Positions 7,036-44,283 are shown, counted from the first letter of the stretch. The stretch: 64,000 bases of DNA from Candidatus Caldarchaeum sp. (GCA_038844785.1 JAWBRA010000005.1:10194-74193), one strand, 5' to 3'. A program made the numbers and translations. The notes: a model not told the origin generated them from the letters alone.

Positions 7036-8394
7036 TTGCGGGAGGAAGATCTCGAGAGAGCCATTTTGGAGGCCAACAACGCGCTCACCAAGGATGAACT
7101 GGAGAGAATGGTTCAAGCCAAGCTGAAGACCTCACCCTTTCTCACACGGCTTGGAGCCCTCCTTATCATCCTTGAGGAGCAGAGACTTGCCGCCGAATTT
7201 CTTAAACAAAGGGATTATGGCTTCACGAAAATCTCAAGCTTAACCACAGGCATTCAGAGCGTCAGCGTGGTTGGAAGGACGTTGGGTTCGAGGATTGTTG
7301 TAGGCGTGGATGGGAAGCCTTCCTTAAGGCTGAGGCTCTGGGATGGAACAGCCGCGATCGACGTAATTGTCTGGGAGAACTTCGACAGACTCACACCGCT
7401 CCAGCTGGGCGATGTGGTGGCTGTACGTAACGGATATGTTTCCTCATCACGGCCCGGTCAGGAAATCCTCCTACAAGCTGGTTCAAAGTCGAGGGTGGAA
7501 AAAATGAGCAAATACGAGGGTCTGCCACCAGTCGATAAAGCGTTGTTTAAGCTCCCGAACGAGTCTCGAGACAAGGCTGGGAAGAGGGATGTCTACGCTG
7601 TAGTGGTTCTCAACACGGGTGTTAAGAAGACGAGTAACGGCACCGATGTATGCGAGCTTGTTGTAACCGACGGAGACAGGGAGTCTTTGCTCATAGCTTG
7701 GAGGGAGTGGGCTAATTATTTCTCAAGCGTTGCTGAGGGACAGAGTTTCTTCGCCGCATCTGTCGAGGTGAAGAACGGCGAGCTTTTCACAGCCAAAAGC
7801 ACCATCATCACATTGGCAGGGAAGGATGATGATCTGCTGTCAAAAGCGTGGCAACGAGGTCAGACAGGCCTTCGTGTCAAGGTTTTGGGATTTGGTTTTG
7901 ACGGGCTTCCCGCAGTAACCGACGGAGTCAAAGTAATGAAAATGGCTTCGCCTGCCGTTGCTGACGCTGGAGAATGCACTGTTGTCGAAAAAGCCTTCGT
8001 CATCTATCGACGTGGCATACCCTACGTCTACGGAACAAAATCAACCCCAGCAGTATGCAGCATCGAAACACCGGAGCTCAAAAGATCAATAGAAGAGGTC
8101 CAGGGAAGGCTGGCGGAAGGTGTTATAGAATGCGTGATAGCTAGAAAAACGCCTGTAAGCGTTGTGAACACTAAATACGGACAGAAAAAGCTAACAGGCT
8201 TCTGGGTTAGCTTTGGGGGAAAGACCATCAGCTGCACAGCGTGGGGTAAGGCATCGGAACTCATAGAAAACCTAGCTGAGGGGGCAAACGTCAGATTCGC
8301 CTTCCCGAAGGTGGGGAAAAACAAGTTCGGCGACATCGAGCTTTCTGTTGACGAACTTTCCTTCATCGAAGTGTGTGAAAAACAAGTTAAATAG
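7036..8394 (+). CDS. Multi-OB-fold single-stranded DNA-binding protein (RPA-like)
   Basis: N-terminal helical segment then repeated OB-fold patterns (KISSL...SVVGR, LWDGTAAIDVIVW, ISCTAWG). Confidence 0.7.
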   Translation: MREEDLERAILEANNALTKDELERMVQAKLKTSPFLTRLGALLIILEEQRLAAEFLKQRDYGFTKISSLTTGIQSVSVVGRTLGSRIVVGVDGKPSLRLRLWDGTAAIDVIVWENFDRLTPLQLGDVVAVRNGYVSSSRPGQEILLQAGSKSRVEKMSKYEGLPPVDKALFKLPNESRDKAGKRDVYAVVVLNTGVKKTSNGTDVCELVVTDGDRESLLIAWREWANYFSSVAEGQSFFAASVEVKNGELFTAKSTIITLAGKDDDLLSKAWQRGQTGLRVKVLGFGFDGLPAVTDGVKVMKMASPAVADAGECTVVEKAFVIYRRGIPYVYGTKSTPAVCSIETPELKRSIEEVQGRLAEGVIECVIARKTPVSVVNTKYGQKKLTGFWVSFGGKTISCTAWGKASELIENLAEGANVRFAFPKVGKNKFGDIELSVDELSFIEVCEKQVK

Positions 8395-8426: not shown

Positions 8427-9659
8427 ATGCTGATAATCTGCCTCGTGAAGGGTGTTCCCGCCAGAACCACTCAAGTGGTAACAGTCTCGGGCGTGCTTAA
8501 GCGGGAGGAGATGGACCTTGTTCTAAACCCGCATGACGTAAAAGCAATTGAAGCCGCGTACTATGTCAAGAGGATGGTGGGTGGAAAAATCGTCGGCATA
8601 AGCATGGGTCCCGAGCCTAAGATAATGCCCATTATGAACGACTTGGCTGAGCCTAAGGAGGAGAGTTTTTACGTTCCAAGGATTTCGTTCGAAGGTTTTG
8701 ACGAAAGAATCATTCTCAGCGACAGGCGGATGGCTGGGGCTGATACATGGGCCACGTCATACACGCTGGCATGCGGGATAAGCCGTTACATCCAAAACCA
8801 TGTTGAAGCGGTTGACAAGCTTATAGAGGCTGTGAAAAACTCTAGCCCGGAAGAGGCTGCATCATTGGCGGAGAAGCTTTACATGGAAAACTTGTTGCCC
8901 AACTACATCTACTCAAAGCTACCGACTGTCAGGGCTACCTTGGTTGAAAGGTTCTTAAAAGGCGAGGTTGGCAAGGAGGCGGTTATCTCCGAGCTTCAAA
9001 AACACAGACAGAACATCACCAACTTCATAATTCTTACAGGCATGAAGACCAGCGACGGGGAAACAGGCAACACAGGTCCTCAGACAGCTGAAGCGTTGAG
9101 CGGCATGATGGGTAGGCTGATACCCAGCATAGCTTTCGTCAGAGAGTTTGAGATATCACCCGACGCCACCACCATCGTAGCCGTCAGAAAAATCGGCAAG
9201 ACTCTCCAAAAACTGCGTGTTTCGCCTCCATGCCTTCTTACGATAGACAGCCATTACGAGCCGAAAGTTCCTTACGCCTCTCTTCAAAGGAAAGTGAGGG
9301 CAAACAACTACATGGGCAAAATGAGAAAAACCCTTGTCTGGAACGCTGACCATATAGGAGCGGACCCAAACAAAATCGGCTTCATGGGCTCGCCAACCAT
9401 CGTCGGACCCGGATACGAAATAGGGAAACCGCCTTCTCAAAAGTTTGTAGGCGAAACGCTTGTCTTTAAACAGAACGTCGGCAAAATAGAATGGAATGGG
9501 AAAGCTTACGGGCCTTTCAACAAAGGTGACATGGCATCAAACCTTCCCGAAGATCTTTTGAGAAAGCTTAGAGAGGACGGTGTTATTGACTTCTTCAGCC
9601 TTGAAGACTTGGTTGAAGAAATTTTCGGAGGGATCAAGGTTGTCCACAGAGCTGTATAA
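8427..9659 (+). CDS. fixA: Electron transfer flavoprotein beta subunit (FixA-like), enlarged
   Basis: LNPHDVKAIEAA, SMGP, SDRRMAGADTWATS and GMKTSDGETGNTGP ETF-beta motifs. Confidence 0.9.
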   Translation: MLIICLVKGVPARTTQVVTVSGVLKREEMDLVLNPHDVKAIEAAYYVKRMVGGKIVGISMGPEPKIMPIMNDLAEPKEESFYVPRISFEGFDERIILSDRRMAGADTWATSYTLACGISRYIQNHVEAVDKLIEAVKNSSPEEAASLAEKLYMENLLPNYIYSKLPTVRATLVERFLKGEVGKEAVISELQKHRQNITNFIILTGMKTSDGETGNTGPQTAEALSGMMGRLIPSIAFVREFEISPDATTIVAVRKIGKTLQKLRVSPPCLLTIDSHYEPKVPYASLQRKVRANNYMGKMRKTLVWNADHIGADPNKIGFMGSPTIVGPGYEIGKPPSQKFVGETLVFKQNVGKIEWNGKAYGPFNKGDMASNLPEDLLRKLREDGVIDFFSLEDLVEEIFGGIKVVHRAV

Positions 9660-10728
9660 AGACGTATGGGCTTACTGTGTAAAAGAAGGAAACCATCTTA
9701 CAAGGCCAAGCCTCGAGATACTTGCCGCAGCCCGTAAGGTCGCTGACAAGATAGGACAACAAGTTGCCGCCGTCATCATAGGCCATAACTTAGACGGTGT
9801 CCTGGATGAGGCGATAGCGTTCGGAGCTGATAAAGTATTGTACGCCGATGAACCCTGGCTTAAAAACTATCTCTGCCTTCCGTACACGCGTGTGTTGTGC
9901 GAGATGGCTGAGAAGATGAAGCCTTACGCGATTCTTTTCGTAGCGGATGAGCTGGGTAGAGATCTTTCACCGCGCGTGGCTTACAGGCTTAACACCGGCC
10001 TTGCGACAGACAACATAAACCTCGAAGTCGAGGACTATTATTTCGGCCCCACCAACACGACTTACAAAAACGTCCTAGCCCAGATAAGGCCTGACTTCGC
10101 TACGAGAGTAGCTAAAATATTCACGCCGAGACATAGGCCCCAGATAGCCAGCATAAGGCCTGGAAACTTCGAACCACTGCCCGAAGACCGTAGGAGGGTT
10201 GGTGAAAAAATCAGGTTTTACCCGACGCCTGTTCCAGAAGATTTCTCCGTCGAGGTCATTGAAGAGAGAGAGCTTCCTAAGCCCAGTGTCAACCTTGAGG
10301 AGGCCAAGGTTGTGGTCAGCATTGGGTTGGGAATACTTAAGGACGGTAGCGGAAACCCACGCAACCCACGGGAGGGTTTCATGCTGGCTAAGAAGCTTGT
10401 GGACTTGGTCAGGGAGAAGTTTGGTGTCCCGAGCGAGCTTGGAGCCACACGGGCGCTCATATACTCAGAGCTTAAAGAGCTTGAAGGCCTTGTTACGTCT
10501 GAAAGACAGGTTGGACAGACAGGTAAGACCGTGTCACCCGACGTCTACATAGCTGCAGGCATAAGCGGCTCAGTCCAGCACAGAGTCGGAATGATCAAGT
10601 CGAAGAAAATAGTGGCTATAAACAACGACCCTAAAGCACCAATCTTCGAGATAGCCCACTATGGGGTGAAAGCAGACCTTTACGAGGCCCTGCCTAAAAT
10701 CCTTGAAATCATCGAGAGGAGGTACTAA
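9640..10728 (+). CDS. fixB: Electron transfer flavoprotein alpha subunit (FixB-like)
   Basis: RQVGQTGKTVSPDVYIAAGISGSVQHRVGM and AINNDPKAPIF FAD-binding motifs; TTG start at 9640. Confidence 0.92.
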   Translation: MSTELYKDVWAYCVKEGNHLTRPSLEILAAARKVADKIGQQVAAVIIGHNLDGVLDEAIAFGADKVLYADEPWLKNYLCLPYTRVLCEMAEKMKPYAILFVADELGRDLSPRVAYRLNTGLATDNINLEVEDYYFGPTNTTYKNVLAQIRPDFATRVAKIFTPRHRPQIASIRPGNFEPLPEDRRRVGEKIRFYPTPVPEDFSVEVIEERELPKPSVNLEEAKVVVSIGLGILKDGSGNPRNPREGFMLAKKLVDLVREKFGVPSELGATRALIYSELKELEGLVTSERQVGQTGKTVSPDVYIAAGISGSVQHRVGMIKSKKIVAINNDPKAPIFEIAHYGVKADLYEALPKILEIIERRY

Positions 10729-12425
10729 TGGCTGAGAAGTTTGATGCCGTGGTGGTGGGCGCCGGACCGGCTGGTTCCGCAGCCGCTTTGACGCTGGCCC
10801 GGAACGGATACGACGTCTTGATGCTTGAAAAGACACAGCTGCCTGGACAGAGGAACGTGTCGGGAGGCGTTTTGTTCGGCGGATTCACTGATGGGCTGGG
10901 GCTTATAGACCTACTCCCCGAGTTTGAAGAGGAGGCGCCTCTCGAGAGGAAGATCTCGGGCCACGAGCTTTATCTGCTAAGCCAGCACGTAAGGAAAAAC
11001 GGGGACTGGGAGTACAGGTTCGTCAAGTTCGATAAGAGGTCTTTATTGACAAAGGTTGGTTTAACCATGCTCAACGCATCAAGCGGACATGACTACACAG
11101 TCCTGAGGGCGCGTTTTGACAGGTGGATGGCTTCGAAAGCGGTTGAGGAAGGCGCTATGCTCGCCACGTCAAAAACGGTTGAAAACCTCATATTCAAAGA
11201 CGGCAGGGTGGTGGGTGTTGTTACCCAGGATGAGGAGATATATGCTGACATGGTGATAGACTGCGGGGGGGTGACCTCACTTCTCCCCGAGAAGGCTGGA
11301 ATAAGACCTAGGCTTACTCCAGCTCAAGTCTACCATGGTGTAAAACAGGTTTTGAAGCTGTCGCCTCAGAAAATTGAAGAATTTTTCAAGCTTGACGACG
11401 GTTTCAAAACACTCTATCTGCTGGGGCCCTTTATGCACGGCATCGTCGGAGGCGGTTTCATATATCCCAACAAAGACACGCTATCTGTAGGTATAGTGGT
11501 TGGGCTTTCTTCTGCGCTACCCGTGTTCACAAGACGTTTCAACGAGTTGGGCAAACCCTTTGAGATTCTCGAGGAGATGATGTCTCATCCGTTCGTCAGC
11601 CAAATATTACAGGAGGCAAAACCGGTCGAGTACTCGGCTCACAACATTCCAAAAGGCTACAAGGTCCTTCCCGACAAACCTTATGCTCCCGGCTTCCTAC
11701 TGGCCGGCGACGCGTTAGGTGTTTTCTACAAGATTGGAGCCCTTATCGACGGAATCAGACCGGCTATAGCCTCCGGAATTTTAGCCGCGCGAACTTTCAT
11801 CCACGCAAAGAACCAAGGCGACTTCAGCGCTTCGACCCTCTCGATTTACAGAAAGCTTCTAGAACCGTTGTACAGGCTTGTCTCAAAGTCGAGGACAAAC
11901 AGCGCCCTGATTGAGCGTAAGATTTTCTATTCAACAAGCTGCGAGGCCATGTTTAAGCTTGGCTTGGGCAGAAAAGCGGTCGCAAAGATAGCAAACGTTG
12001 GAAACAACGGCAAGGACATGATGCAGACTATACAGCAGATGACCGGGCTTCTCGACTATCAGGAAGACAAGCTTAGGTCGCACATAGAGGTAAACCAAGC
12101 TATGGCATCTTCTGACAGGGAGAAAGCATGGATACCCATGTGCCCCGTCAACTGCTATACCCTGGTGACGGGTAAAGGTGTTTTCGCATCTTTCAAAGAC
12201 CTTTACCGATACAACCTAGAGAGCCTGAAGAAGAATGGTTTGGATGAAAGGACGGCGGCTAGAAAGGCCTTGGAGACAACGTTGGAAGACATTAGGTTGG
12301 GGCAGCTGAAGTTCGACCACGTGGCTTGTGTGGCATGCGGGACGTGCGGCGTGATCGGACCGCCGTCCATGGTTAGGTTTGGCCATGAATGGAATGGGTA
12401 CGGTGTTAAGTTTAAATATGGTTAA
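10728..12425 (+). CDS. fixC: FixC flavoprotein (ETF:quinone oxidoreductase type) fused to a FixX ferredoxin-like domain
   Basis: GAGPAG Rossmann motif, NVSGG, LRARFDRW, LAGDA; C-terminal CPVNCY...CVACGTC...GYGVKFKYG typical of FixX. Confidence 0.88.
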   Translation: MAEKFDAVVVGAGPAGSAAALTLARNGYDVLMLEKTQLPGQRNVSGGVLFGGFTDGLGLIDLLPEFEEEAPLERKISGHELYLLSQHVRKNGDWEYRFVKFDKRSLLTKVGLTMLNASSGHDYTVLRARFDRWMASKAVEEGAMLATSKTVENLIFKDGRVVGVVTQDEEIYADMVIDCGGVTSLLPEKAGIRPRLTPAQVYHGVKQVLKLSPQKIEEFFKLDDGFKTLYLLGPFMHGIVGGGFIYPNKDTLSVGIVVGLSSALPVFTRRFNELGKPFEILEEMMSHPFVSQILQEAKPVEYSAHNIPKGYKVLPDKPYAPGFLLAGDALGVFYKIGALIDGIRPAIASGILAARTFIHAKNQGDFSASTLSIYRKLLEPLYRLVSKSRTNSALIERKIFYSTSCEAMFKLGLGRKAVAKIANVGNNGKDMMQTIQQMTGLLDYQEDKLRSHIEVNQAMASSDREKAWIPMCPVNCYTLVTGKGVFASFKDLYRYNLESLKKNGLDERTAARKALETTLEDIRLGQLKFDHVACVACGTCGVIGPPSMVRFGHEWNGYGVKFKYG

Positions 12426-12488
12426 TATGGTACCAATCTTATTTTATGATAAGAATAGCTTAAATTAAGGCTAAAACAGGCATACCCC

Positions 12489-13340
12489 ATGACCTACGCA
12501 AACCCCAGCGTTCTAGCGGAAGTTGAATGGCTGAAACAAAACCTGGCAGACCCCAGCATAAAAGTCGTGGAGGTTGACTACGACCCGAAGCTGGCTTACG
12601 AACAAGGCCATATACCCGGAGCCTTGCTGATCGACTGGAGGAAAGACATGAACAAGCAGGACGTCCGTGACATAATAGACGCCCGCGAGTTTGAAAACCT
12701 CATGTCACGTTTAGGCATCTCAAACGACACCCACGTAATACTCTACGGCGACTACAACAACTGGTTTGCGACTTTCGCCTTCTGGGTCTTCGAAATGTAC
12801 AACCATAAGAAAGTCCAGCTCCTCAACGGCGGAAGGAAAAAATGGATCGATTCCGGCGGAGAGCTCACAAAAGAAGTGCCAAAGCCAAAGCCAGCGGTAT
12901 ACCGTGTCGAGAAAATCAACCTTGAACAGCGGGTTTTCCTTGATGAGCTTTTGAAGGAGAAAATAGCGGATCCGAACTTGGTTTTAGTCGACGTTAGGTC
13001 ACCTGCGGAGTTTACCGGCGAGATCACGGCTCCTCCGGAATATCCTAACGAGCATGCGCAAAGGGGCGGCCATATCCCAGGTGCGGTAAACATTCCTTGG
13101 GGGCAGGCGGTACGTGAAGACGGCACTTTCAAACCTGCTGAAGAGCTTAGGCAGCTCTACAGCTCAAAAGGAGTTACTCCGGATAAAAACGTAGTCACTT
13201 ACTGCAGAATCGGCGAGAGAGCTAGCGTAACATGGTTTGTGTTGAAACATTTGGTTGGATACCAGCGTGTCCGAGTTTACGACGGCAGCTGGACAGAGTG
13301 GGGTAACCTCGTTAGGTTTCCGATAGAGAGGCAGCGTTGA
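12489..13340 (+). CDS. Two-domain rhodanese (thiosulfate sulfurtransferase)
   Basis: GHIPGA twice, active site YCRIGER, C-terminal VYDGSWTEW signature. Confidence 0.95.
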   Translation: MTYANPSVLAEVEWLKQNLADPSIKVVEVDYDPKLAYEQGHIPGALLIDWRKDMNKQDVRDIIDAREFENLMSRLGISNDTHVILYGDYNNWFATFAFWVFEMYNHKKVQLLNGGRKKWIDSGGELTKEVPKPKPAVYRVEKINLEQRVFLDELLKEKIADPNLVLVDVRSPAEFTGEITAPPEYPNEHAQRGGHIPGAVNIPWGQAVREDGTFKPAEELRQLYSSKGVTPDKNVVTYCRIGERASVTWFVLKHLVGYQRVRVYDGSWTEWGNLVRFPIERQR

Positions 13341-13996
13341 AGTCTGCGGATGGATGTTTCTTACCGGAGGACAGGGGCTACGTCGTTGAACACGACCTAT
13401 GGTTCAAGAACGTTGCGGAGAACAGGTATTTGGTGGGAGCGTGCCAACCATTTCTTTTCATGGCAGGCAGGCCTAAAAAAGTAAACGTAAGAGGTAAAGG
13501 AACCTTAGTCAGACGGAACACAGCCATTGCCCTTGTTGTTTCGTCAAAGATGGAGGGCGCTTTGCTGTCGCCTGTTGACTTAGAAATACTGCATGTTAAC
13601 GATTTTGTGTTGCAAAACCCCGAGGTTTTAGCTGACGACCCTTATGAAAAAGGATGGCTAGCTGAAATAATCTGCCACTCAACCCCTGCATTAACAGGTG
13701 CGGAAACAGCCTCCGTGTTATATGAGCAGTTGAACAGCCGGCGTGGGGTTGTCTGCTTCGACATAGTCCCACATTACCAGATGACTGTGTTTGGGGAAAG
13801 CTGTGAGAGTATTTTGACTAAGATAGGTAATTTCATGAGTCAACACGTGGGTGTAGGCGAGACGCTTTACGTTGTGACGCAGGACCCGGCTACAGAGGTG
13901 GACATGATTAACTGGGCTGAGAAAACAGGTCAGCATCTCCTAGGCATGAAAAGGTTTGGAAAAACCATTCACGTAATGTACAAGCGCATGGTTTAA
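13337..13996 (+). CDS. Lipoyl-carrier (GcvH/LbpA-like) domain fused to a C-terminal TusA/SirA-like domain
   Basis: HDLW, VVSSK (candidate lipoyl Lys) and DPYEKGW H-protein motifs; C-terminal GESC...GETLYVVTQDPATEVDMINWAEKTGQ matches the TusA pattern; 4-bp overlap with the rhodanese. Confidence 0.75.
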   Translation: MKSADGCFLPEDRGYVVEHDLWFKNVAENRYLVGACQPFLFMAGRPKKVNVRGKGTLVRRNTAIALVVSSKMEGALLSPVDLEILHVNDFVLQNPEVLADDPYEKGWLAEIICHSTPALTGAETASVLYEQLNSRRGVVCFDIVPHYQMTVFGESCESILTKIGNFMSQHVGVGETLYVVTQDPATEVDMINWAEKTGQHLLGMKRFGKTIHVMYKRMV

Positions 13997-14532
13997 GCTC
14001 GCCACCATTCAAACATCACATACGTCACCTTATCTTCAGCGGGAACCGCTACTGTAAAATATTTTTTCACCGAGGTAGCGAGCCTTCCGGACCGTATTAT
14101 CTCCAGAGCTGAAATCTTTCCATTCTGTTCCTTAACCTGTATGATGAATGGGGCGTGGTCGATGCCTGGTCCATGCCGGTAGACTGCGAAATCGCTGCCA
14201 AACTTTATCCCGGGGAGAACTATGAAACCCCTATTCCTCAAATCGCTGTAAACTGTGTATTTTTTCAACAGATTCTCGTCCTGGGCTATGGCATGTTTTT
14301 CCAGCTCTTCCGCCGTTAGTTCCTTGCCTGAGCTGAACACTTTCAGAAGGCCGTTTCTATGAAGGTACAGTGCTTCCAGCAAGTCCAAAACGAGGGGTGC
14401 GTCGAAGTTCATGTCCCTTGGCTTGGGTATGCCCAAGGGTTTTCCGAAAAAACCTTTCCTGTAAAGATCTCTGGCCTCTTCCACGTCCCATACTATTACG
14501 CTGTCCTTTAACAGCTCTCCCCGTGCCAACAA
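13993..14532 (-). CDS. endA: tRNA-splicing endonuclease catalytic subunit
   Basis: GIKFGSDFAVYRHGPGIDHAPF with catalytic Y/H/K; GFFGKPLGIPKP loop. Confidence 0.93.
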   Translation of the reverse strand: MLARGELLKDSVIVWDVEEARDLYRKGFFGKPLGIPKPRDMNFDAPLVLDLLEALYLHRNGLLKVFSSGKELTAEELEKHAIAQDENLLKKYTVYSDLRNRGFIVLPGIKFGSDFAVYRHGPGIDHAPFIIQVKEQNGKISALEIIRSGRLATSVKKYFTVAVPAEDKVTYVMFEWWRA

Positions 14533-14539
14533 CTTCAGC

Positions 14540-15205
14540 CTAAAGGATTACAAACGAGAGAACACGCAGGGTTTCAACAGCCTCCTCAGACCTGTCGGCT
14601 ATGTCTTCAAGCATCGAGACTATCTCGCGGACAAGCAGTAGCTGGCCAACCTTCATGTCCGTCTGAAGTATGGTTAGGTCGAGGTTGCGGTAGATTTCGT
14701 CTACGTTTCGCTCAGCCTCTTCAGTCTCTTTAACTTTCTGGAGAAATGTCTCGCTGTTCAGGGTAACGGCTAGAAGAGCCTCTCTTAGCTTTGTCACAGA
14801 CTGTAGCACGGCGTCGCACAGCTTCAACACATTAGCCAAAATCTCCCTATCAATCTTCATACGGGCCTTGGTTAAGCCTAAGATTCTGTACGCCACGCCC
14901 TCCGCAGTGTCTGCTATCCGGTCAATTCCGTTAACCAGACGGATGAAATCTTCTCTGTTGGTGAGTATGGCTCCTATGTCTGACACCTCTTTCTCTACAA
15001 GCCTTCTAGACTCTTTGGCGGCTTCGTCGGCCTTCAGCACGGCCGCGTAAAGCTCCTCCATCTTCTTAATATCATAGTCCTTGTTGAGCGAATCGAGCAT
15101 GAGCGACGTTTTTCTTAAAAGCTCCAAAACATTCCTTATCTGGTCTTGAGCGAGGCTGAGAAGCCTCGACCTATAATCTTCCATCCTTTCTCTTGCAGCA
15201 TACAA
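14540..15205 (-). CDS. DUF47/PhoU-like helical protein
   Basis: REDFIRLVNGIDRIAD, ExxxDEIYR and LEDIADRSE repeats. Confidence 0.8.
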   Translation of the reverse strand: MYAARERMEDYRSRLLSLAQDQIRNVLELLRKTSLMLDSLNKDYDIKKMEELYAAVLKADEAAKESRRLVEKEVSDIGAILTNREDFIRLVNGIDRIADTAEGVAYRILGLTKARMKIDREILANVLKLCDAVLQSVTKLREALLAVTLNSETFLQKVKETEEAERNVDEIYRNLDLTILQTDMKVGQLLLVREIVSMLEDIADRSEEAVETLRVLSFVIL

Positions 15206-15273
15206 GCCGTGGCACCTGCTGTTGATAATGCATTAAACATTTTTAAAGATATCGTGGCTGCGTGATTTGATGT

Positions 15274-15867
15274 ATGAAGGTTGCCGGAGCGGTAGTTGCT
15301 TCTGGTTTTGCTAGACGTTTTGGCGGTGATAAACTAGTCACCCCTTTACTTGACAAGCCTCTTTTAACATGGGCCCTCGAATCCATAGCCCACCTGGATT
15401 ATAAGGCGGTTGTTTTGAAGAAGTTTGATGAGAAGCGAAGACTTGTACCGCCTGCTTTTACTGTTCTAGTCAACCTAAACGCTGAAAAGGGTTTGAGCTC
15501 TGCGTTAAGAGTTGCTGCATCATGGATGCCTGCGGATGCTGACGGGCTGGCGGTGGTGTTAGGAGACATGCCGTTTTCTAAGAAGGTTGTCGACGAGCTT
15601 GTGAAAGCCTTCCATTTAGGCGGGTTCGACGCCGTTTCAGCGGGGCTGAACAGCAATCCTGTAAACCCAGCGGTTTTCTCTAGAAAAATCGTCCACCACT
15701 TGATTTCTCTTGAAGGAGACGTCGGAGCCCAGACAGTCCTCAAAAAAGTTAAAACCCTTGTCATAGATTTTGACAGACGGCTTTTGACAGACGTGGATAC
15801 ACCGGAAGACTTAGCGGAAGCGGTCAAAGCTGTGGAAGAGCTACGTCGTCTCAAGTACCTCGACTGA
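15274..15867 (+). CDS. MobA/MocA-family nucleotidyltransferase
   Basis: VASGFARRFGGDKL, LGDMP, GDVGA and DVDTPED motifs. Confidence 0.85.
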   Translation: MKVAGAVVASGFARRFGGDKLVTPLLDKPLLTWALESIAHLDYKAVVLKKFDEKRRLVPPAFTVLVNLNAEKGLSSALRVAASWMPADADGLAVVLGDMPFSKKVVDELVKAFHLGGFDAVSAGLNSNPVNPAVFSRKIVHHLISLEGDVGAQTVLKKVKTLVIDFDRRLLTDVDTPEDLAEAVKAVEELRRLKYLD

Positions 15868-16767
15868 GTCTATTTTGCCATCACCGTCGAGGTCCAGACC
15901 CTCCACAACCGCTGCCCAGCTTTCCTGACCTTCGTAAGATTCTAACAGTTTCTCCCAACCGGTTGTCAGAGATATTACCGCTGCCTTTGTTCCGGAGGCT
16001 CTGAGCCCCGCTAGAACGATGGCCGTGTTGTTGGGGTTGCTGGGGTTTGGTGTTTTTGCGACGAGGCCGATGAACTCGCTGGTGTAAGTTTGTTTCGGCG
16101 AGACAAGGCCAGCCCAGTAGTTGCTTTCTAGGAAGCTTATCGGCAGGCTGGTGTTCACCATGGCTGTGATTAGGTTGGTGCCCGGCCCTCCCAGCAACAG
16201 CAAGTTGTTTGTGTAAAGCTTCTCCGACTTGACGTCCACGTCAAGCCTTACAGCGAAGTCAGCAGGTAGCCCCACATACCTACCTAGGAAAAGACCAAGC
16301 TGGAAACCATAGTGGCCGTCAGAGGCCACAGACCTGAAGGGGCCGTGGGGATGGGGTGAGCCGACCACAACCAAGCCGTTTAGCTTTCCATCCCTTACAA
16401 ACGGGTGGAGAAAGGCTGACAGCTTTTCAGGCATCTCAACCTTCTTGAAATGACGGCGCCAGGGATGCTTGGGAAAAACTACGGCTATTCCCGAGGAGGT
16501 GGTTTTGTACAACCTTGCCCTCCCACCTCTAACCTCTGTTTCACCAACCTCCGTCAAAAAACCTGTTTTGAGCATCCTCTTCACATACATCCCGACCGCC
16601 TGCTTGCTAACTCCCAGCTTCTCGGCGACGTTGGCAGGGTAGTCTGGCTTGCGAAAAGCCCCAGCTATCTCAGCCGCAAGCCTTGACGAAAATACCTTAG
16701 CTGAATCTGCGCTCGCCAATGCAACGTCTATTTCACGCAGTCCATAGACAAGCCTAGCTCTTCTCAT
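15841..16767 (-). CDS. Winged-HTH transcriptional regulator with an uncharacterised C-terminal domain
   Basis: PANVAEKLGVSKQAVGMYVKRM...RGGRARLY wHTH; C-terminal VVGSPHPHGP and LLGGPGTN; divergent from glmS. Confidence 0.75.
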   Translation of the reverse strand: MRRARLVYGLREIDVALASADSAKVFSSRLAAEIAGAFRKPDYPANVAEKLGVSKQAVGMYVKRMLKTGFLTEVGETEVRGGRARLYKTTSSGIAVVFPKHPWRRHFKKVEMPEKLSAFLHPFVRDGKLNGLVVVGSPHPHGPFRSVASDGHYGFQLGLFLGRYVGLPADFAVRLDVDVKSEKLYTNNLLLLGGPGTNLITAMVNTSLPISFLESNYWAGLVSPKQTYTSEFIGLVAKTPNPSNPNNTAIVLAGLRASGTKAAVISLTTGWEKLLESYEGQESWAAVVEGLDLDGDGKIDSVEVLETT

Positions 16768-16843
16768 AACCAGTAAAAAAAATATTTCACCGGTTAATCA
16801 ACCTTTGAATCGTGTTTATAAACAGGTTGTCCATCGGAACCGT

Positions 16844-18661
16844 ATGTGCGGCATTGTCGGATACGTTGGCGAAGCTAGGGCTGCGCCTATTCTGGTAAAG
16901 TCTCTCAAAAGGCTTGAGTATAGGGGGTACGACTCAGCGGGTATCGCGACAATCTACGACGGCAAGCTTTACATCGAGAAGGACGCGGGAAAAATCGATG
17001 AGATAAACCTAAAGCTTGGGTTTGACACGCTGCCGGGCTTTATAGGAATAGCACACACAAGATGGGCGACCCACGGCGCCCCCACGAAGGTTAACGCACA
17101 TCCCCACACCGACTGCGGAAATACAATCGCAGTCGTCCACAACGGCGTTCTGGAGAACTTTTTACAACTGAAGAAAGAGCTTTCCGACCTAGACCACGTG
17201 TTTGTATCTAAAACAGACACCGAGGCTATTCCGCATTTGCTTGAAGAATACCTGAAGGCTGGCGAAAGCCTGGAGAAGGCGTTCATAAAGATGTTACGTA
17301 GGCTTGAAGGCAGTTACGCCCTGGCAGTTGTCTCGTCAAAACATCCTGACATGCTTCTTACCGCTAGGAAGGAGGCGCCGCTCATCATAGGTGTTGGAGC
17401 GGGATTCAACATGGCCGCGTCAGACATAACAGCGTTGCTTGACATGACCAGGGAGATGGTTTTTCTCCACGACGGTGATGCAGCGATCTTGACAAAGGAT
17501 GGTTACCGCATCATAAGGATAGACAGTGGAGAGGCTGTTGAGAGACCGGTTAAACACGTTGAATTAAGCGTGGAGATGGCTGAGAAACAGGGATATGCCC
17601 ACTTCATGCTTAAGGAGATTTTTGAACAGCCTCAAACGCTCAGAGACTCTCTCCGACTACAGCAGGAATACGTTGACCTGCTGGCGGAACTACTTGACAA
17701 AGGCCGGGTGATTTTCCTGGTTGGTGCCGGAACATCCTACAACGCTTGTTTGGCGGGCTCCTACCAGCTTTCGCACATGGCCCGTATGGCAACCTACCCG
17801 GTCATCGCTTCAGAATTCATCCCAAACTACGGTGGCTCTCTCGGAGCAGACACCGTTGTCTTGGCGGTCAGCCAGTCGGGTGAAACGGCTGACGTCTTGA
17901 ACGCCCTCGAATACGCGAGGATGAGGGCCTGCACGATCTTGGGGTTGACAAACACTGTTGGCTCAACCCTGACCCGAATATCGCGGGCATACGTCCTCCA
18001 AAACTCGGGGCCAGAGATAGGTGTGGCGGCAACGAAAACTTTCACGTCCCAGGTGCTTTCGCTGGCCCAGATTGCATTAAGGCTGGCTAGGCTTAGGGGG
18101 AAGATAGCTCAGTATGAGATGGATGAGTTCAAGTCAGAGCTGGCGAAAGTTCCTAAGATAGTTGAGGAGGTTTTGATGAAATGCGGGCCCCGTGTGCAGG
18201 AACTGGCGCGACTCCTTGCACCTAAAAAATTTTTATTCGTGTTGGGTAGGGGTGTGTCAACCAGCACAGCATACGAAGGCCGTCTTAAGGTGATGGAGCT
18301 TTCCTACATACCGTGCATAGCTTATCCAGCCGGCGAAAGTAAGCATGGACCTATAAGCGTGATAGAGAAGGATGTCCCAGTCATATTCGTCGCACCCAAC
18401 GACGAATACAGAAAATTAAACATCGGAAGCATAATGGAGATGAAGGCTCGGGGAGCCTATGTCGTGGTTTTCGGCGACGCTGCTGACGATGAGCTTAGGC
18501 AGCTAGCTGACTTCTACATAGGGTTGCCTAGGGTCCACCCGCTTTTAACACCAATCCCCTACGCCGTCCCGTTCCAGCTACTCGCCTACCATCTCGCCGT
18601 CTTGAAAGGACTGGACCCCGACAAGCCTAGAAACCTTGCAAAATCCGTAACCGTCCTTTAA
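16844..18661 (+). CDS. glmS: Glutamine--fructose-6-phosphate aminotransferase
   Basis: MCGIVG N-terminal nucleophile, HTRWATHG, SQSGETAD, DPDKPRNLAKSVTV. Confidence 0.97.
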   Translation: MCGIVGYVGEARAAPILVKSLKRLEYRGYDSAGIATIYDGKLYIEKDAGKIDEINLKLGFDTLPGFIGIAHTRWATHGAPTKVNAHPHTDCGNTIAVVHNGVLENFLQLKKELSDLDHVFVSKTDTEAIPHLLEEYLKAGESLEKAFIKMLRRLEGSYALAVVSSKHPDMLLTARKEAPLIIGVGAGFNMAASDITALLDMTREMVFLHDGDAAILTKDGYRIIRIDSGEAVERPVKHVELSVEMAEKQGYAHFMLKEIFEQPQTLRDSLRLQQEYVDLLAELLDKGRVIFLVGAGTSYNACLAGSYQLSHMARMATYPVIASEFIPNYGGSLGADTVVLAVSQSGETADVLNALEYARMRACTILGLTNTVGSTLTRISRAYVLQNSGPEIGVAATKTFTSQVLSLAQIALRLARLRGKIAQYEMDEFKSELAKVPKIVEEVLMKCGPRVQELARLLAPKKFLFVLGRGVSTSTAYEGRLKVMELSYIPCIAYPAGESKHGPISVIEKDVPVIFVAPNDEYRKLNIGSIMEMKARGAYVVVFGDAADDELRQLADFYIGLPRVHPLLTPIPYAVPFQLLAYHLAVLKGLDPDKPRNLAKSVTVL

Positions 18662-18692
18662 AAATATCTAAAACTTACACAGAGGTTAGCCG

Positions 18693-19154
18693 ATGCCCTG
18701 CTGTGTCCTAGTTGTTAAAGACCATTTTGTCGGCAAGGAGGTTATTCCCGCGAGGGAGGTGGCTGAGGTGAGGGTGGGGAAGAAGTTTTGGCTAGTGAGC
18801 AAGCGTGTTGCAGCCATGAAGACTTTGAAAGAAGGAGGGGTTGCAGTTTTCTATGCAACAGGACGTGAAGGCCGTATGTTCTTGGGGGAAGGAAGCTTCT
18901 CGGAGGAGCCTAAACCATTAACGGACGAACTACGTTTCCACGTACGCGGCCTTCCCTCAGAAAAGCTTACACACTTCATAAAGCTTGACCACGCCCGCCT
19001 CTGGGACAGGACTGTCCCGGCAGAGGAGGTTGTCGAAAAGCTTTCCTTCATAAGAAAGAGGGATAAGTGGCAGTCCTACTTTAGAGGTAGCTTAAGGCAG
19101 ATACCTGAGGAGGATTTTAACCTGTTGAAAAGCATGGGCTCGTCTCAGCCGTAG
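18693..19154 (+). CDS. EVE (PUA-like) domain protein
   Basis: W...LKEGGVAVFYATG...LSFIRKRDKWQSYFRGSLRQIPEEDFNLL pattern typical of archaeal EVE proteins. Confidence 0.75.
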   Translation: MPCCVLVVKDHFVGKEVIPAREVAEVRVGKKFWLVSKRVAAMKTLKEGGVAVFYATGREGRMFLGEGSFSEEPKPLTDELRFHVRGLPSEKLTHFIKLDHARLWDRTVPAEEVVEKLSFIRKRDKWQSYFRGSLRQIPEEDFNLLKSMGSSQP

Positions 19155-20524
19155 ACGCTTGATATACCCAAGTCTCTGGCAAGCTGTGTTTCGGTAGCAG
19201 CGATGTCCTCTAGGCTCAGATCCTCCACGTTGTATTTTCCGACGGCAGACGTTAGTAGCTGAATCTCTGTCTTGAGCGTTTCAAGATAGTTTTTAACCCC
19301 CTCCTCCCCTCGCGCGTATGCCGCCACTACCACAGGTCTTCCAACCCCCGCTGCAGCCGCTCCAAAACAGAGAACCTTGACCACATCGCCGCCGTCTACA
19401 ATCCTGCCGGAACAAATGAAGTCTATGCTAAGCTTTCCACACAGCTTGGCGATCTTTCCAAGACAGGCTACAAGAGGAAGACCGAGATCCTTCATAGCCG
19501 TCACCGGGCTGAGCCCGGTTCCTCCCTCTTTTCCGTCAACCCAGAAGGCATCAGCTTTCTCAGCGTCGCAGACGGTGGCAACGTCTTCCAAATCCCTGTA
19601 CGGTCCCGACTTTATCCACACCCTCGCCCTCGGATAGTTATTCCTCATAAGCCTTATCATGCTTCTAAGTATCTCGGGTGTGAAGGTTCCAGGCGCTGAA
19701 TGCCTTTCGTACAATGGTTTTTCAACAGTTTTAGGGTCGGCGTCAAACGAGTACTTGTCGCTGAGCCTAAGAGCCAATTCTCTGTCAACCATTGTTTCGC
19801 CTCCGAGGCCGGGTTTGGAGCCCTGCCCCAGCTTAATCTCGAAACCAACCCTCCCCTCCTCTATGTAGGGTGTTATGTCCGGGTCTGAGTAGACTCTGTT
19901 CCACAGCTCGTCGTAGGCGTCTTCCACGCTTTGCTGTATGAATACACCGCCGTTGCCTTCCGGCGCGTTTTCAAAGTATGACATGACCCTCTCTTTGAAG
20001 CACGGCTGGCTGGGCTTCACTCTCTTAGCATAGCCCCAAACGGTTGCCACGTTTTCTCCAACTCCCATGGGGACGCCGAGCTTCGCCGCAGCCCTTGCAA
20101 CATCCAGCGAGACCTTATTGTATACCGGCGTTGAACCCATCGAAGCTATTGCAACAGGGACCGGTGATTTGAAACCTCCGAAGGAACACGCTGTCTCGAC
20201 GTCTGTGAACAGAGGCTCTCTCATCAGCTCCTCCATTTTCTTAAGCCTTAGCGGTGTGTAAAGTGGAGGGATTAAGAGGATTTTGTCGAGCGTGTCGTGT
20301 CTTGTAGGGGCTGGCTGGTAAATTGGAGCTCCCAACAAAGCTCTGCCGAATTCATCTGCCTCTGTAAATGGGAAGATAGACCGTCTTCCCTGCAGAGCCC
20401 TGTAGGCCACTTCCTTGACCGGATACTGCTCCGTAAACTTGGTCAAGGACTTTAGTGTTCCCGGGCTTCGGAAAAGCTTGAGCAGCAGGTTTAGAAGAGG
20501 AGGTGTACTCAATCCATGTCTCAC
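19145..20524 (-). CDS. Glutamate synthase FMN-binding-domain-like protein, stand-alone
   Basis: SMGS, GEN, FEIKLGQGSKPGLGG, VDGKEGGTG and SGRIVDGGDVVK motifs; GTG at 20524 overlaps the upstream TGA. Confidence 0.82.
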   Translation of the reverse strand: MRHGLSTPPLLNLLLKLFRSPGTLKSLTKFTEQYPVKEVAYRALQGRRSIFPFTEADEFGRALLGAPIYQPAPTRHDTLDKILLIPPLYTPLRLKKMEELMREPLFTDVETACSFGGFKSPVPVAIASMGSTPVYNKVSLDVARAAAKLGVPMGVGENVATVWGYAKRVKPSQPCFKERVMSYFENAPEGNGGVFIQQSVEDAYDELWNRVYSDPDITPYIEEGRVGFEIKLGQGSKPGLGGETMVDRELALRLSDKYSFDADPKTVEKPLYERHSAPGTFTPEILRSMIRLMRNNYPRARVWIKSGPYRDLEDVATVCDAEKADAFWVDGKEGGTGLSPVTAMKDLGLPLVACLGKIAKLCGKLSIDFICSGRIVDGGDVVKVLCFGAAAAGVGRPVVVAAYARGEEGVKNYLETLKTEIQLLTSAVGKYNVEDLSLEDIAATETQLARDLGISSVYG

Positions 20525-21501
20525 GGGGAGTATATTCCGGCGACTTTCGGATAGGGTCTCGCCTCCCAAACCGCCTGAAGTCCACACACATATCTTGTAA
20601 GCCTTTCAAGACCTATTCCGAAGCCAGAGCTCGGCCTAACCCCGTCTCTCAGCATATCTAGGTACCATCCATATTTAGCTGGGTTTTCACCGCTCTCCCT
20701 AAGCCTAGCCAAAACCTTCGCATACTGGTATTCGCGCTCCGCCCCCGAGGCAGCCTCGCCATATCCCTCAGGATACATCAGGTCGAAGTCTTTCAAGATT
20801 CCTGGCTTCTCAGGGTTCTCCATGTCGTAGAAGCCTCGAGCTCCTCTGGGGTAGTCGGTGATGAAGAAAGGTTCTCCCATGTAACGTGAGAGCTTCTCCT
20901 CCTGTGGCCAGGGTATTTCAGCCATGGGGTTTACTTTTTCTCCGAGCGTTTTCAGGATTTCAATCGCTTCGGCGTGAGTTATCTTTTTGAACGGCGGGGT
21001 GAAAACCGGCAGGCTTCTCCCCAGCTCCTTCAGAAGCTCAGCACCATGCTCTCTCGTATAGTTGACAACATAAGACATCAGCTGTTCAGCGGTGTTCATA
21101 GCCGCCTTATAGTCTACGTCAGCCTCCTCTATGTCTATCTGGACAAACTCGACAAGATGTCTTCCAGTAGTAGAGGATTCGATGGGCTCCAGCCTGATGT
21201 TGGGTGAGAAGAAGTATATTTTTCCAAAGGCTGTGGCCAGCATCTGCTTGTAAAGTATTGCGCTGCTCATCACCTTGTACTCTTTTCCATAATAGTCTAT
21301 GGTGGCTTGTTTGGCCCCCCTAATTCCTGGGTCTGTCACAGGTCCTATGATTGGTGGAAGTATCTCTAGGAAGCCATGGGAGTCGAGCCATTCCCTCGCA
21401 GCCCTGCTTATCATCGCTTGAAGCTTCAGGATTAGGTATGACCGTCGGCTTCTGATGGTTTTGTAGTGTTTCTCGAGCTGTTCCAAAGGCGGTTTGAGCA
21501 T
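20521..21501 (-). CDS. Archaeal asparagine synthetase A-like protein (Asp/AsnRS catalytic core with no anticodon domain)
   Basis: TDP, SPNIRLE...GRHLVEF.QIDIE motif 2, GEAASGAERE, GFGIGLERL motif 3; ATG at 21501. Confidence 0.85.
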   Translation of the reverse strand: MLKPPLEQLEKHYKTIRSRRSYLILKLQAMISRAAREWLDSHGFLEILPPIIGPVTDPGIRGAKQATIDYYGKEYKVMSSAILYKQMLATAFGKIYFFSPNIRLEPIESSTTGRHLVEFVQIDIEEADVDYKAAMNTAEQLMSYVVNYTREHGAELLKELGRSLPVFTPPFKKITHAEAIEILKTLGEKVNPMAEIPWPQEEKLSRYMGEPFFITDYPRGARGFYDMENPEKPGILKDFDLMYPEGYGEAASGAEREYQYAKVLARLRESGENPAKYGWYLDMLRDGVRPSSGFGIGLERLTRYVCGLQAVWEARPYPKVAGIYSP

Positions 21502-39379: not shown

Positions 39380-40526
39380 CGGCCATTCTCCTCTCCCTCA
39401 AATAATGCTCTACAACCTGTGAAACACGTTCGGCGTCAGCTCCCACCAGCTCAACCCTTCCATCTCTGCTAAGCTCAATGAAACCTTTGTGCCTCAGAGA
39501 TCTCACCGCTTTGTCGAAGCCTGTGTCTGAACGGCCATGCTGCTCGCAGATCATTCTGTAAATTTTCTTCACGGCTTCAACCTCCGCGTATGCCTCTCCC
39601 GTAATGGTTAAACATTTTGCGACGGCGAGAAGAGCTGTTTTCTCGTTTTCGGAAAGTTCGGCTAACTCACTGGATAGTGTTGTCTGCCCTGTCTCAGCCA
39701 GCACGTATCTGACGTCGTCGAGTTTCACGTGGTCGTAACCTCTAGACTCTGCCAAGTTGCCTGCATACAGAAGAACGTCTAAAGCGAACCTTACGTCTCC
39801 GTTATGAGGCGGCCTCGTAGCAACGTCTGCGACATATTCTATGACTTGGTGTGAAACGGCTCCTCTTCTAAAAGCCTCCGAAACCCTTTCCTCCAGTATC
39901 TCTTTCATCTGCTCAGTTGTGTACGGCTCTAGCTTTACGATGTTTACTCCGAGGGAGCTGAGTTCAGGCTTTTCCAAAAGACCGCCGTAAGCTGGGTCGC
40001 GTGTTACGAAAACCACTCCGACAACGTTTACCGGCCTTACCGAGAAAACTTCATGGAGGCGTGTGAAGTCGTAAACCACCGTCTCTCTTCCCCTGCATGC
40101 TTTGACGTGGTAGTCGGCCTCGTCGAATGTTATCACGGACTGCTTCCGGTGATTTTTAAGGTATGTTAGAAGATTGTCGAGAAGCTCCTCCGCTGAAAGC
40201 GACTGGCTGTAGGCCTCCTCGGAAAGGGTTCTCACCATGTACCTGTATATTGCTACTTTGCTGGCCGAGAACCTCCGCAGGTTTACGTAAAGATGTATCA
40301 GGTTTTTGTAGGCTGCCTCAAGCTCCTGCCCCACCTTGAGGCATAGAGTTGTTTTGCCAGCCCCTACCCCACCTACCACCTGAGCTTTGGCCACGAAGCT
40401 GTCTGACCGTCTTTCTACTCCCTCTCTCAACAGGGTTGAGAGGAGTTTCCTCTCCCTATCCCGATGGAGGAGAGTTCTCGGTATGTAGGAGGGCGACAGC
40501 TTTGAGGCGTCAACAAATACGGGCAT
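39372..40526 (-). CDS. cdc6: Orc1/Cdc6-family AAA+ ATPase
   Basis: LSPSYIPRTLLHR, GGVGAGKT, FDEAD, PYTTEQMKEILEER, GDVRFALDVL, C-terminal wHTH; start placed about 27 nt after a TATTTAAA box. Confidence 0.9.
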   Translation of the reverse strand: MPVFVDASKLSPSYIPRTLLHRDRERKLLSTLLREGVERRSDSFVAKAQVVGGVGAGKTTLCLKVGQELEAAYKNLIHLYVNLRRFSASKVAIYRYMVRTLSEEAYSQSLSAEELLDNLLTYLKNHRKQSVITFDEADYHVKACRGRETVVYDFTRLHEVFSVRPVNVVGVVFVTRDPAYGGLLEKPELSSLGVNIVKLEPYTTEQMKEILEERVSEAFRRGAVSHQVIEYVADVATRPPHNGDVRFALDVLLYAGNLAESRGYDHVKLDDVRYVLAETGQTTLSSELAELSENEKTALLAVAKCLTITGEAYAEVEAVKKIYRMICEQHGRSDTGFDKAVRSLRHKGFIELSRDGRVELVGADAERVSQVVEHYLRERRMADG

Positions 40527-40806
40527 CTGTAGAAAATGCCTCATTCCTCTTTTTAAATAATACGATAACAATTTTTCCGCAAAACTTCGTTGAATAGGGT
40601 TTGCCCTTCCTATGGATATTCAGATGACGTGGGTGACAACAACCCCTCTGGAAAAGGAAGCTGGTAGGGATGAACTGGTTTTGGGGCAGGAATTCTAATG
40701 AACTATAGCGGCTTGGAGTTGCTTCGGAAAAGCATTTGCCAAAAAAGCGGGCGATGTTTTATGGGTACTTTTAGTTGGACTACCTGTCCGCCTAGCTAAG
40801 CATACG

Positions 40807-41073
40807 TCACCGTAGACCGGCGATTTTCAAGGCTTGGTCTCGTGGGAACGCTGTCAAGGTTTCGGTGGAAAGGTAGTCGGCGAACTGGAGAATGAATTTT
40901 AAATATGTTTCTGGGTCTGGTGCCTCAGCTATCAGTATGCCGTCGTAGGCTCCGAAGGTCCATAGCATTTCACGGACTTTTACCGCAGGGTTCTCTCTGA
41001 TTATTTTATCAGTTCTGTCGACATCCTCACGGCCTAGCTTTCGCCTAAACCTAATCAACGTCACGAAAAGCAT
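40807..41073 (-). CDS. GYD-domain protein
   Basis: WTFGAYDGILIAEAPD...TETLTAF pattern. Confidence 0.85.
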   Translation of the reverse strand: MLFVTLIRFRRKLGREDVDRTDKIIRENPAVKVREMLWTFGAYDGILIAEAPDPETYLKFILQFADYLSTETLTAFPRDQALKIAGLR

Positions 41074-41149
41074 GAACTTTATATGTATTGGATGCAATTA
41101 TGTTTTTCGCCCGCAACGTTGATATACCCTACCTCTTCACACATAACTC

Positions 41150-41416
41150 ATGCCCTACATAACCCGTGAGGAGAGAGCTGAGCTTGACAAGGAGGTTGAA
41201 GCCCTCGTGAAGAAGCTGGCTGCAGCCCCGCCTGAAAAGATGGACGGAAGGCTCAACTACGTGATAACACGCCTGCTGGCACAACTCTATCCGCCGGGCT
41301 ACTTCAACTACAACAGGGCCATGGGAGTTCTTTCGTCAGTGGCCCACGAATACTACAGACGACGCGTAGCCCCATACGAGGACGAAAAGATTAAGCAGAA
41401 CGGCGACGTATACTAG
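41150..41416 (+). CDS. Conserved hypothetical protein (MPYI...GxLNY family)
   Basis: MPYI, GRLNYVITRL and EYYRRRVAPYEDEKIKQNGDV motifs. Confidence 0.7.
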   Translation: MPYITREERAELDKEVEALVKKLAAAPPEKMDGRLNYVITRLLAQLYPPGYFNYNRAMGVLSSVAHEYYRRRVAPYEDEKIKQNGDVY

Positions 41417-41421
41417 CTAAG

Positions 41422-41429
41422 CTATATAT
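41422..41429 (+). promoter_or_regulatory. TATA box for a probably leaderless E1-alpha transcript
   Basis: CTATATAT about 23 nt upstream of ATG 41452, no Shine-Dalgarno. Confidence 0.5.
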
Positions 41430-41451
41430 CGCCTACAAATGATTAGCTGCC

Positions 41452-42441: not shown

Positions 42442-42447
42442 AAGGCC

Positions 42448-44222: not shown

Positions 44223-44283
44223 GGTGGGATGGCTGGTTTTCGGTCGTTTTTAAAGTAATATCCCGCCCGCTAGTTCAAATGAC

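Follow-up and report, generated by a model that had tools for sequence, protein, structure and literature searches.

Two probably independent gene units, an EtfABCX-type flavoprotein complex and a rhodanese with a GcvH/TusA fusion protein, side by side in Candidatus Caldarchaeum

Does a set of electron-transferring flavoprotein (ETF) genes lying directly upstream of a rhodanese and a sulfur-carrier protein belong to the same pathway, or are the two simply neighbors? The question is raised by five open reading frames (ORFs), all on the + strand, at 8427-13996 of a 64,000-nucleotide stretch of Candidatus Caldarchaeum sp. DNA, read from the DNA itself. The window, as we call this whole stretch, is JAWBRA010000005.1:10194-74193 (GCA_038844785.1), that is, positions 10194-74193 of contig C5 in a genome of 1.74 Mb, 57 contigs and 95% completeness. 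Three ORFs encode an EtfB-like protein (8427-9659), EtfA (9580-10728) and a FixC with a fused FixX-like ferredoxin tail (FixCX, ETF:quinone oxidoreductase-like; 10728-12425). An AT-rich intergenic gap of 63 bp (12426-12488) forms the boundary to a tandem-domain rhodanese (12489-13340) and a 219-aa fusion protein, in which an N-terminal domain of GcvH fold (residues 1-140; 13337-13756) is followed by a C-terminal domain of TusA fold (13757-13996). A preliminary description of this DNA had read the five genes as one compact module that loads sulfane sulfur onto a lipoyl/TusA carrier, with ETF-FixCX as the electron outlet. Our comparison of gene neighborhoods does not bear this out. The stretch probably holds two independent units side by side, an ETF complex and a relay made of the rhodanese and the fusion protein.

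Gene neighborhoods of the two units

We retrieved 20 Caldarchaeales neighborhoods and mapped ten window proteins onto each of them. The ETF unit adjoins the rhodanese in seven, from six genomes of the window's genus (g1) and one of another genus (g3). These seven keep the entire block, namely DUF7388, OB-fold, etfB, etfA, fixCX, rhodanese, fusion, tRNA-splicing endonuclease, PhoU-like and MobA-like genes. Because unrelated housekeeping genes are likewise kept there, the adjacency of ETF and rhodanese is a matter of synteny and carries no functional weight. The remaining 13 neighborhoods do not have the ETF unit beside the pair and, in the seven genomes where it could be located, it is sited elsewhere. 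In g2, a further genus of the window's family (f1), the rhodanese, fusion, endonuclease and PhoU genes stand together and the OB-fold, etfB, etfA and fixCX genes are on a different contig. Each half is intact, so a single breakpoint falls exactly in the gap between fixCX and the rhodanese. Beyond this breakpoint, six further genomes have the ETF unit either 65-380 kb off or on a separate contig. For the sister family (f3), the distance between ETF unit and fusion gene is 65 to 380 kb in the four genomes that have both on one contig, and the neighbors of the ETF unit are unrelated genes (S-adenosylmethionine (SAM)-cycle enzymes, radical-SAM, DUF763 and transporters). The same holds for other archaea. 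A species-genome scan gave 152 relatives of the fusion protein, and among the best 80 of these 152 loci there was no match (0/80, E<=1e-5) to etfB, etfA, fixCX or any other window neighbor except the rhodanese.

A single five-gene module would consist of the rhodanese and a lipoylated GcvH-TusA protein oxidizing sulfane sulfur, with ETF-FixCX delivering the electrons to quinone and the whole replacing the heterodisulfide reductase-like sulfur-oxidation system (sHdr). Its attraction is easy to see. The genes are co-oriented and tightly packed, their arrangement is kept in seven related genomes, and type II shdr clusters contain etfAB-emo (PMC11094781; this and the other papers cited here are quoted from excerpts). 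The layout was also described correctly at the outset, as the five genes, their overlaps, the 63-bp gap and the TATA-like sequence within it are all present in the window DNA. The overlap of etfA and fixCX is TAATG (10726-10730) and that of rhodanese and fusion is TTGA (13337-13340). Between etfB and etfA it measures 80 nt with the longest etfA ORF, but the true start of etfA may be the TTG at 9640, just after a GGAGG, and the overlap would then shrink to 20 nt. However, the seven genomes keep unrelated flanks just as faithfully, the two halves are unlinked in g2, in all sister-family genomes examined and in 80/80 loci of other archaea, and the module would include no catalyst able to oxidize lipoyl- or Cys-bound sulfur. 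We consider it very improbable. The survey of neighborhoods thus found no co-location of the ETF and rhodanese-fusion genes beyond the syntenic genera, and the case cautions that tight adjacency inside one genus had been mistaken for a functional module.

Another argument against a shared module comes from the gap itself. At 12460-12467 the DNA reads TTAAATTA, which is TATA-like and stands 21 nt ahead of the rhodanese ATG. An A/T-rich TATA-like octamer is found about 21-29 nt before this ATG in nine of nine aligned genomes, including two of g2 that have no fixCX upstream, so the rhodanese has a conserved box of its own. The position of TTAAATTA fits a leaderless or short-leader archaeal promoter. 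Separate transcripts for the two halves, which the preliminary description had raised, are favored by this conservation but not shown. Two metatranscriptome runs were available as contigs alone, in which transcript ends are not visible and DNA carry-over is possible. One (X10, 100% identity) gave four contigs, all on rhodanese and fusion, one of which bridges their junction (13301-13519), and none on the ETF genes. The other (X12), from a relative of 90-95% identity, has contigs on etfB, the etfA/fixCX junction, the rhodanese, the rhodanese/fusion junction (13162-13378) and further downstream. These contigs are a weak hint compatible with co-transcription of rhodanese and fusion; none spans 12426-12488, a missing cover that says nothing about transcription.

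The rhodanese and the fusion protein do keep together. When the fusion protein was searched against a 301-genome sample of the phylum, full-length matches were obtained in nine of the ten other genomes of the window's family and in 12/12 of the sister family, and matches elsewhere in the sample were of H-protein size alone. In Caldarchaeales the two genes are adjacent in 17/20 loci, co-directional and with the rhodanese first. A profile of 29 Caldarchaeales fusion proteins, run against 1.84 billion cluster representatives, retrieved 34 proteins at E<=1e-30, most of them full-length matches of 215-250 aa; the named ones come from metagenome-assembled genomes (MAGs) of Bathyarchaeia and Methanomassiliicoccales. 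The best 80 loci of the species-genome scan are mostly from Thermoplasmata MAGs, a few being labelled Thaumarchaeota, Nitrososphaerota, Crenarchaeota or Thermoproteota. Here, a rhodanese ortholog lies within 600 nt of the fusion gene in 63/80 loci (within 133 nt in 62), always convergent, tail to tail. Across those loci the rhodanese is 53-74% identical to that of the window and the fusion protein just 22-33%. One locus has the rhodanese as a 30-aa fragment only, 6.4 kb away. Where adjacency is missing, in three Caldarchaeales and one other genome that were checked, a rhodanese ortholog is present elsewhere in the genome (4/4). That the two genes stay adjacent in different phyla and in either orientation is a good indication that they are functionally linked, and the part of the preliminary description that had the rhodanese and the TusA-containing fusion acting together is well supported by it.

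Proteins of this make-up also appear in the ESM Atlas, with eight clusters of GcvH/TusA two-domain proteins, the three with taxa given being 86-100% archaeal; in related Atlas clusters, roughly one member in two has the Pfam TusA family. Public records name these proteins "glycine cleavage system H protein" or "TusA family protein", and neither name fits. We found no paper describing a GcvH/TusA fusion in the full-text literature, subscription-only journals not being covered. The pair is therefore a widely distributed archaeal two-gene unit for which we found no earlier description, and a variant of known sulfur carriers.

The rhodanese, the fusion protein and a proposed relay

The rhodanese (283 aa; Pfam Rhodanese 4.5e-40, in two stretches) matches Thermus 1UAR (5.8e-101) and Mycobacterium CysA/SseA-type enzymes. 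Its predicted catalytic cysteine is in the loop of the C-terminal domain (CRxGxR type). An alignment of 27 orthologs, with a mean column identity of 71%, shows no variation in this active-site loop, C239-R-I-G-E-R. By homology, it is a tandem-domain rhodanese of the thiosulfate sulfurtransferase type.

The two folds of its partner are well defined in an AlphaFold2 model (pLDDT 94, pTM 0.86). With Foldseek, the N-terminal domain (Pfam GCV_H 6e-14) matched the H-protein 1ONL_A (E 1.2e-10, TM 0.90 by target) and the C-terminal domain (Pfam TusA 4e-4, under cut-off) matched E. coli TusA, with TM 0.85 for 3LVJ_C and 0.89 for 3LVK_B by target and rmsd of 1.4-1.8 Å. In an alignment of 130 distinct fusion proteins we tallied the residues at four sites, with residue numbers taken from the window's protein. 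Cys156 (13802-13804), the putative TusA active site, which starts the helix 156-170 of the model, is cysteine in 130/130. In the N-terminal domain, a cysteine near the N-terminus (Cys7, 13355-13357) and another after the last helix (Cys140, 13754-13756) are each kept in 129/130. The lipoyl site (Lys71, 13547-13549) is different, with Arg in 95, Lys in 30, Thr in 3, Val in 1 and Ser in 1. The nearest single-domain relatives of the N-terminal domain have the N-terminal cysteine, the C-terminal cysteine and the lysine in 13/14 each, and the genome's own lipoate-binding protein LbpA has cysteines at the positions aligned with Cys7 and Cys140. According to Cao et al. (2018, PMC6067878), two cysteines near the termini set LbpA apart from GcvH and the lipoyl lysine is "strictly conserved" in LbpA. 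By this signature the N-terminal domain is of LbpA type with the cysteine pair kept and the lysine not. The label "lipoyl carrier" of the preliminary description does not suit the family, and the lack of a conserved lipoyl lysine also counts against the five-gene module. The genome has a further member of the GCV_H family in the window, its third match, a free-standing 81-aa lipoyl domain (43443-43688, - strand). Read by eye, its gene is convergent with, and just downstream of, an E1-beta-like 2-oxoacid dehydrogenase gene (42448-43446, +).

The window's own fusion protein has Lys71, and it could be argued that it is a genuine lipoylated LbpA, with the fused TusA as built-in sulfur donor, which feeds an sHdr complex. 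Such a complex may exist. The claim that sHdr is absent is true of the window, where no heterodisulfide reductase gene is found (the genome has six CCG-domain, HdrB-type matches and none is on C5), but untrue of the genome, since an sHdr-like island on contig C6 comes with LbpA, TusA, DsrE and lipoate ligase (LplA) of its own. The island (C6 ~56800-64050; L010:4817-12042) encodes, in order, DsrE, TusA, lipoate ligase, a 143-aa LbpA-type protein, DsrE, HdrC-like, HdrB-like (CCG) and short HdrA-like proteins, a QmoC-like protein in two pieces (Fe-S part, 148 aa; membrane part, 281 aa), and an ORF of 116 aa. It has neither an ETF nor a second CCG protein. A type II shdr cluster is described as shdrC1B1AHB3 plus etfAB-emo in one syntenic cluster, and for want of the second CCG protein and the ETF the island corresponds neither to type II nor to type I, going by the gene sets defined in the excerpts of PMC11094781. 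Its HdrB-like (sHdrB1-like) protein occurs in 4/61 genomes across the order. Identity is 100% for another species of the genus, against 82-84% for two genomes from other genera, of which one belongs to the sister family. As FixCX is about 50% identical between the two families, the island looks recently moved or shared, by transfer or as a shared contig.

Besides Lys71, the LbpA cysteine signature of the N-terminal domain, the ligase adjoining the island's LbpA and the known TusA-LbpA interaction in Aquifex (PMC11094781) all speak for a lipoylated fusion protein serving the island. On the other hand, the island owns an LbpA with the usual motif around the lysine, as well as TusA, two DsrE and a ligase, and the sHdrB1-like protein is in 4/61 genomes while the pair is in nearly all genomes of both families. 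Arg occupies the site in the closest full-length relatives retrieved (57 and 54% identical), and the residue three positions before it, Glu in 119/130, is Val in the window's protein. In a FastTree phylogeny of the 130 proteins, in which the site's own column (1 of ~220) was left in, Lys and non-Lys interchange at least 18 times. We regard this explanation as improbable, and the rhodanese-fusion pair as independent of the C6 island. A link between Lys71 and the presence of sHdr was also rejected, five Lys-bearing Caldarchaeales genomes having no sHdrB1 match.

Our preferred reading is that rhodanese and fusion are a two-gene relay with a promoter of their own. The rhodanese would load sulfane sulfur from thiosulfate or from persulfide/polysulfide onto Cys239, and this sulfur could then be passed to Cys156 of the TusA-like domain. 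The second transfer is proposed by analogy with the findings of Tanabe et al. (2024; PMC11094781), who report that TusA exchanges sulfur with a rhodanese-like protein and, in Aquifex, interacts with LbpA. From Cys156 the sulfur might go on to the Cys7/Cys140 pair of the LbpA-like domain, a step suggested by the fusion itself and by the same TusA-LbpA interaction. Since most family members have Arg in place of the lipoyl lysine, lipoate is not required, and the carrier probably passes sulfur without it. Lipoylation may nevertheless occur in the window's own protein. For the last step we lean, a little short of an even chance, toward the Cys pair resolving the persulfide, with release of sulfide and formation of an intramolecular disulfide, so that the protein would stand in for dihydrolipoamide as rhodanese acceptor. 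It is also quite possible, if less so, that the pair carries the sulfur as persulfide or trisulfide to a further acceptor.

The data establish the gene content, the folds, the conserved pairing, the three conserved cysteines, the variable lysine and the independence of the pair from ETF and sHdr. Several points weigh against this relay. Which way the sulfur travels, whether the Cys pair takes part and what becomes of the sulfur are inferred from homology and gene pairing. The TusA domain scores 20.6 bits against a gathering score of 28.6 for Pfam PF01206, over profile positions 24-65 of 70, and its active-site cysteine is not followed by the prolines of canonical TusA. The window's protein carries Lys71 in a genome with two lipoate ligases (C6 and C15). 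As to gene pairing, 16/80 loci have no adjacent rhodanese (three of these have less than 650 nt of DNA downstream), and many of the 80 come from related Thermoplasmata MAGs and are not independent. Neither the 20 Caldarchaeales loci nor the 80 others have a third recurrent neighbor or acceptor beyond local synteny. Finally, fixCX and the rhodanese may share a transcript. A predicted complex of rhodanese and fusion, both entered as alignments, scored 0.00, which is no verdict and counts neither way. De novo ORF clustering of the 80 loci brought up no acceptor candidate. What recurred were antisense ORF artefacts and genes of housekeeping or unrelated function (polysaccharide synthesis, SUI1, Nre, glyoxalase, Zn-ADH, AHSA1, luciferase-like).

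The pair could otherwise serve biosynthesis, mobilizing sulfur for molybdopterin or tungstopterin, thiolated tRNA or Fe-S clusters and delivering persulfide to a biosynthetic acceptor with no release of sulfide. Bacterial TusA does serve tRNA thiolation and molybdenum-cofactor synthesis (PMC2854127; PMC5372717), the pair is present in many archaea not known as sulfur oxidizers, and a MobA-like gene is three genes downstream of the pair in the window. This MobA neighbor, however, is kept only where the whole region is syntenic, and no biosynthetic gene recurs beside the pair in other lineages. On chemical grounds, moreover, a disulfide-capable Cys pair beside a persulfide carrier would tend to resolve the persulfide. 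A biosynthetic role is thus unlikely in our opinion.

The proposed relay has a bearing on a question in sHdr sulfur oxidation, namely what the two conserved cysteines of LbpA do. A preprint (10.64898/2026.10.01.755906), in which Cys7 and Cys145 of Thioalkalivibrio LbpA2 were mutated, reports that models place them near enough to form a disulfide and that the ligase does not need them to recognize LbpA, and it leaves their function open. With cysteines kept, lysine lost, TusA joined and rhodanese tied to it, the fusion offers a simple two-protein system that bears on the role of the Cys pair. We tentatively suggest, as a generalization that may well prove wrong, that the LbpA cysteines are a sulfur-accepting site fed by TusA and workable without lipoate. 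At this site a persulfide or trisulfide might be held, as in DsrC, or else resolved to sulfide. In that case rhodanese and fusion would amount to a minimal archaeal unit for processing sulfane sulfur, widespread and possibly ancestral to the lipoate-dependent LbpA branch of sHdr. If this were true, the fusion would be a natural "Rosetta stone" for the LbpA cysteine pair.

The ETF unit

The upstream half can be understood by itself. All five solved-structure matches of the EtfB-like protein (410 aa; Pfam ETF 4e-11, NCBIfam EtfB 1e-25) are subunits of bifurcating ETFs, the best being Thermotoga maritima EtfABCX (7KOE_A, 3.5e-26). EtfA matches Pfam ETF (9e-32) and ETF_alpha (2e-18) and the NCBIfam AcrA-type ETF (2.4e-75). 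The 565-aa FixCX protein (NCBIfam FixC 2.9e-65) has 7KOE_C of T. maritima as best solved match of its FixC part (1.8e-47), and its FixX-like tail has the EtfX ferredoxin of the same complex (7KOE_D), weakly (E 0.03) and collinear to the C-terminus. Orthologs with FixC and FixX fused in this way occur in 16/17 genomes for the window's family and in 18/19 for the sister family. Two parts of the EtfB-like protein, residues 126-200 (~75) and about 80 C-terminal residues, have no counterpart in T. maritima EtfB, and this long form is kept in both Caldarchaeales families with 48-71% identity over the full length. The three-gene unit is intact in all 12 genomes where the genes adjoining fixCX were inspected. 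Judged by these matches, etfB-etfA-fixCX is a self-contained flavoprotein complex of the EtfABCX/FixABCX type.

If it works like its Thermotoga and Pyrobaculum counterparts, as is most likely, it oxidizes NADH and passes the electrons to menaquinone and ferredoxin. NADH oxidation with reduction of ferredoxin and menaquinone is reported for T. maritima EtfABCX (PMC10734219), and the Pyrobaculum aerophilum enzyme is described likewise (PMC9127580). A complex of this type requires no substrate dehydrogenase or sulfur partner, which fits the free-standing behavior of the ETF unit and is one more reason to doubt the five-gene module. The preliminary description had in addition depended on the ETF having no other possible partner. 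The sHdr-like island and six acyl-CoA dehydrogenases are found elsewhere in the genome.

Directly before etfB, the window has a gene for a 452-aa OB-fold protein (7036-8394). The same gene directly precedes etfB in seven of nine related genomes of the family that were examined; among the seven is the g2 genome G106 (L064:4753-6219), in which the rhodanese pair has moved away.

Two further ETF pairs accompany the six acyl-CoA dehydrogenases in the genome, ETF genes being located on C5, C14 and C25 only. The region on C14 (~39480-45030; L012:3485-9034) has a conventional EtfB/EtfA pair and, two genes away, a gene for a 671-aa membrane protein in which a NarI-like membrane part is combined with a ferredoxin part and two CCG domains. 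From its domain content alone, this protein resembles ETF:menaquinone oxidoreductase (EMO), and the C14 set is the likelier electron collector for the six acyl-CoA dehydrogenases. On C25 (~12700-20600; L011:734-8593), a 1654-aa ORF combines HdrA-like parts (FAD and Fe-S) with an MvhD/FlpD end and is split by an intein that has a LAGLIDADG domain. Next come the genes of an HdrD-like protein (Fer4 and two CCG domains) and of an EtfA/EtfB pair, and the whole set might encode an Hdr-ETF complex.

Comparison with known systems

One precedent for the arrangement as a whole is the type II sHdr cluster, which likewise has ETF genes and sulfur-relay genes in one neighborhood. It differs in that the window contains no shdr gene, the C6 island has no ETF and the window's ETF pairs with FixCX instead of EMO.

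The N-terminal domain of the fusion shares with LbpA the GcvH fold, a cysteine near the N-terminus and another just past the C-terminal helix. Unlike LbpA, it has Arg or another residue for the lipoyl lysine in 100/130 family members and is fused to a TusA-like domain; moreover, no shdr or lipoate-ligase gene is near it in the 20 Caldarchaeales and 80 other loci, and it is present in genomes without an sHdrB1 match. The C-terminal domain has the fold of E. coli TusA (PDB 3LVJ, 3LVK and 1DCJ) and the invariant cysteine that opens the first helix. It is part of a larger protein and not a free protein of 80 aa, and it is under the Pfam gathering score.

As in the rhodanese-TusA(-DsrE) relays of sulfur oxidizers (PMC11094781), a rhodanese is genetically paired with a TusA-type carrier. 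Here, however, the rhodanese is a tandem-domain enzyme in place of a single-domain Rhd, neither DsrE nor sHdr is attached, TusA and the LbpA-like domain are one polypeptide, and the hosts are mostly not known sulfur oxidizers.

Finally, the ETF unit differs from known EtfABCX/FixABCX complexes in the fusion of FixC and FixX and in the insertion of about 75 residues and the C-terminal extension of EtfB. It agrees with them in having EtfB, EtfA, FixC and the FixX-like part in one operon, with the T. maritima subunits as best solved matches.

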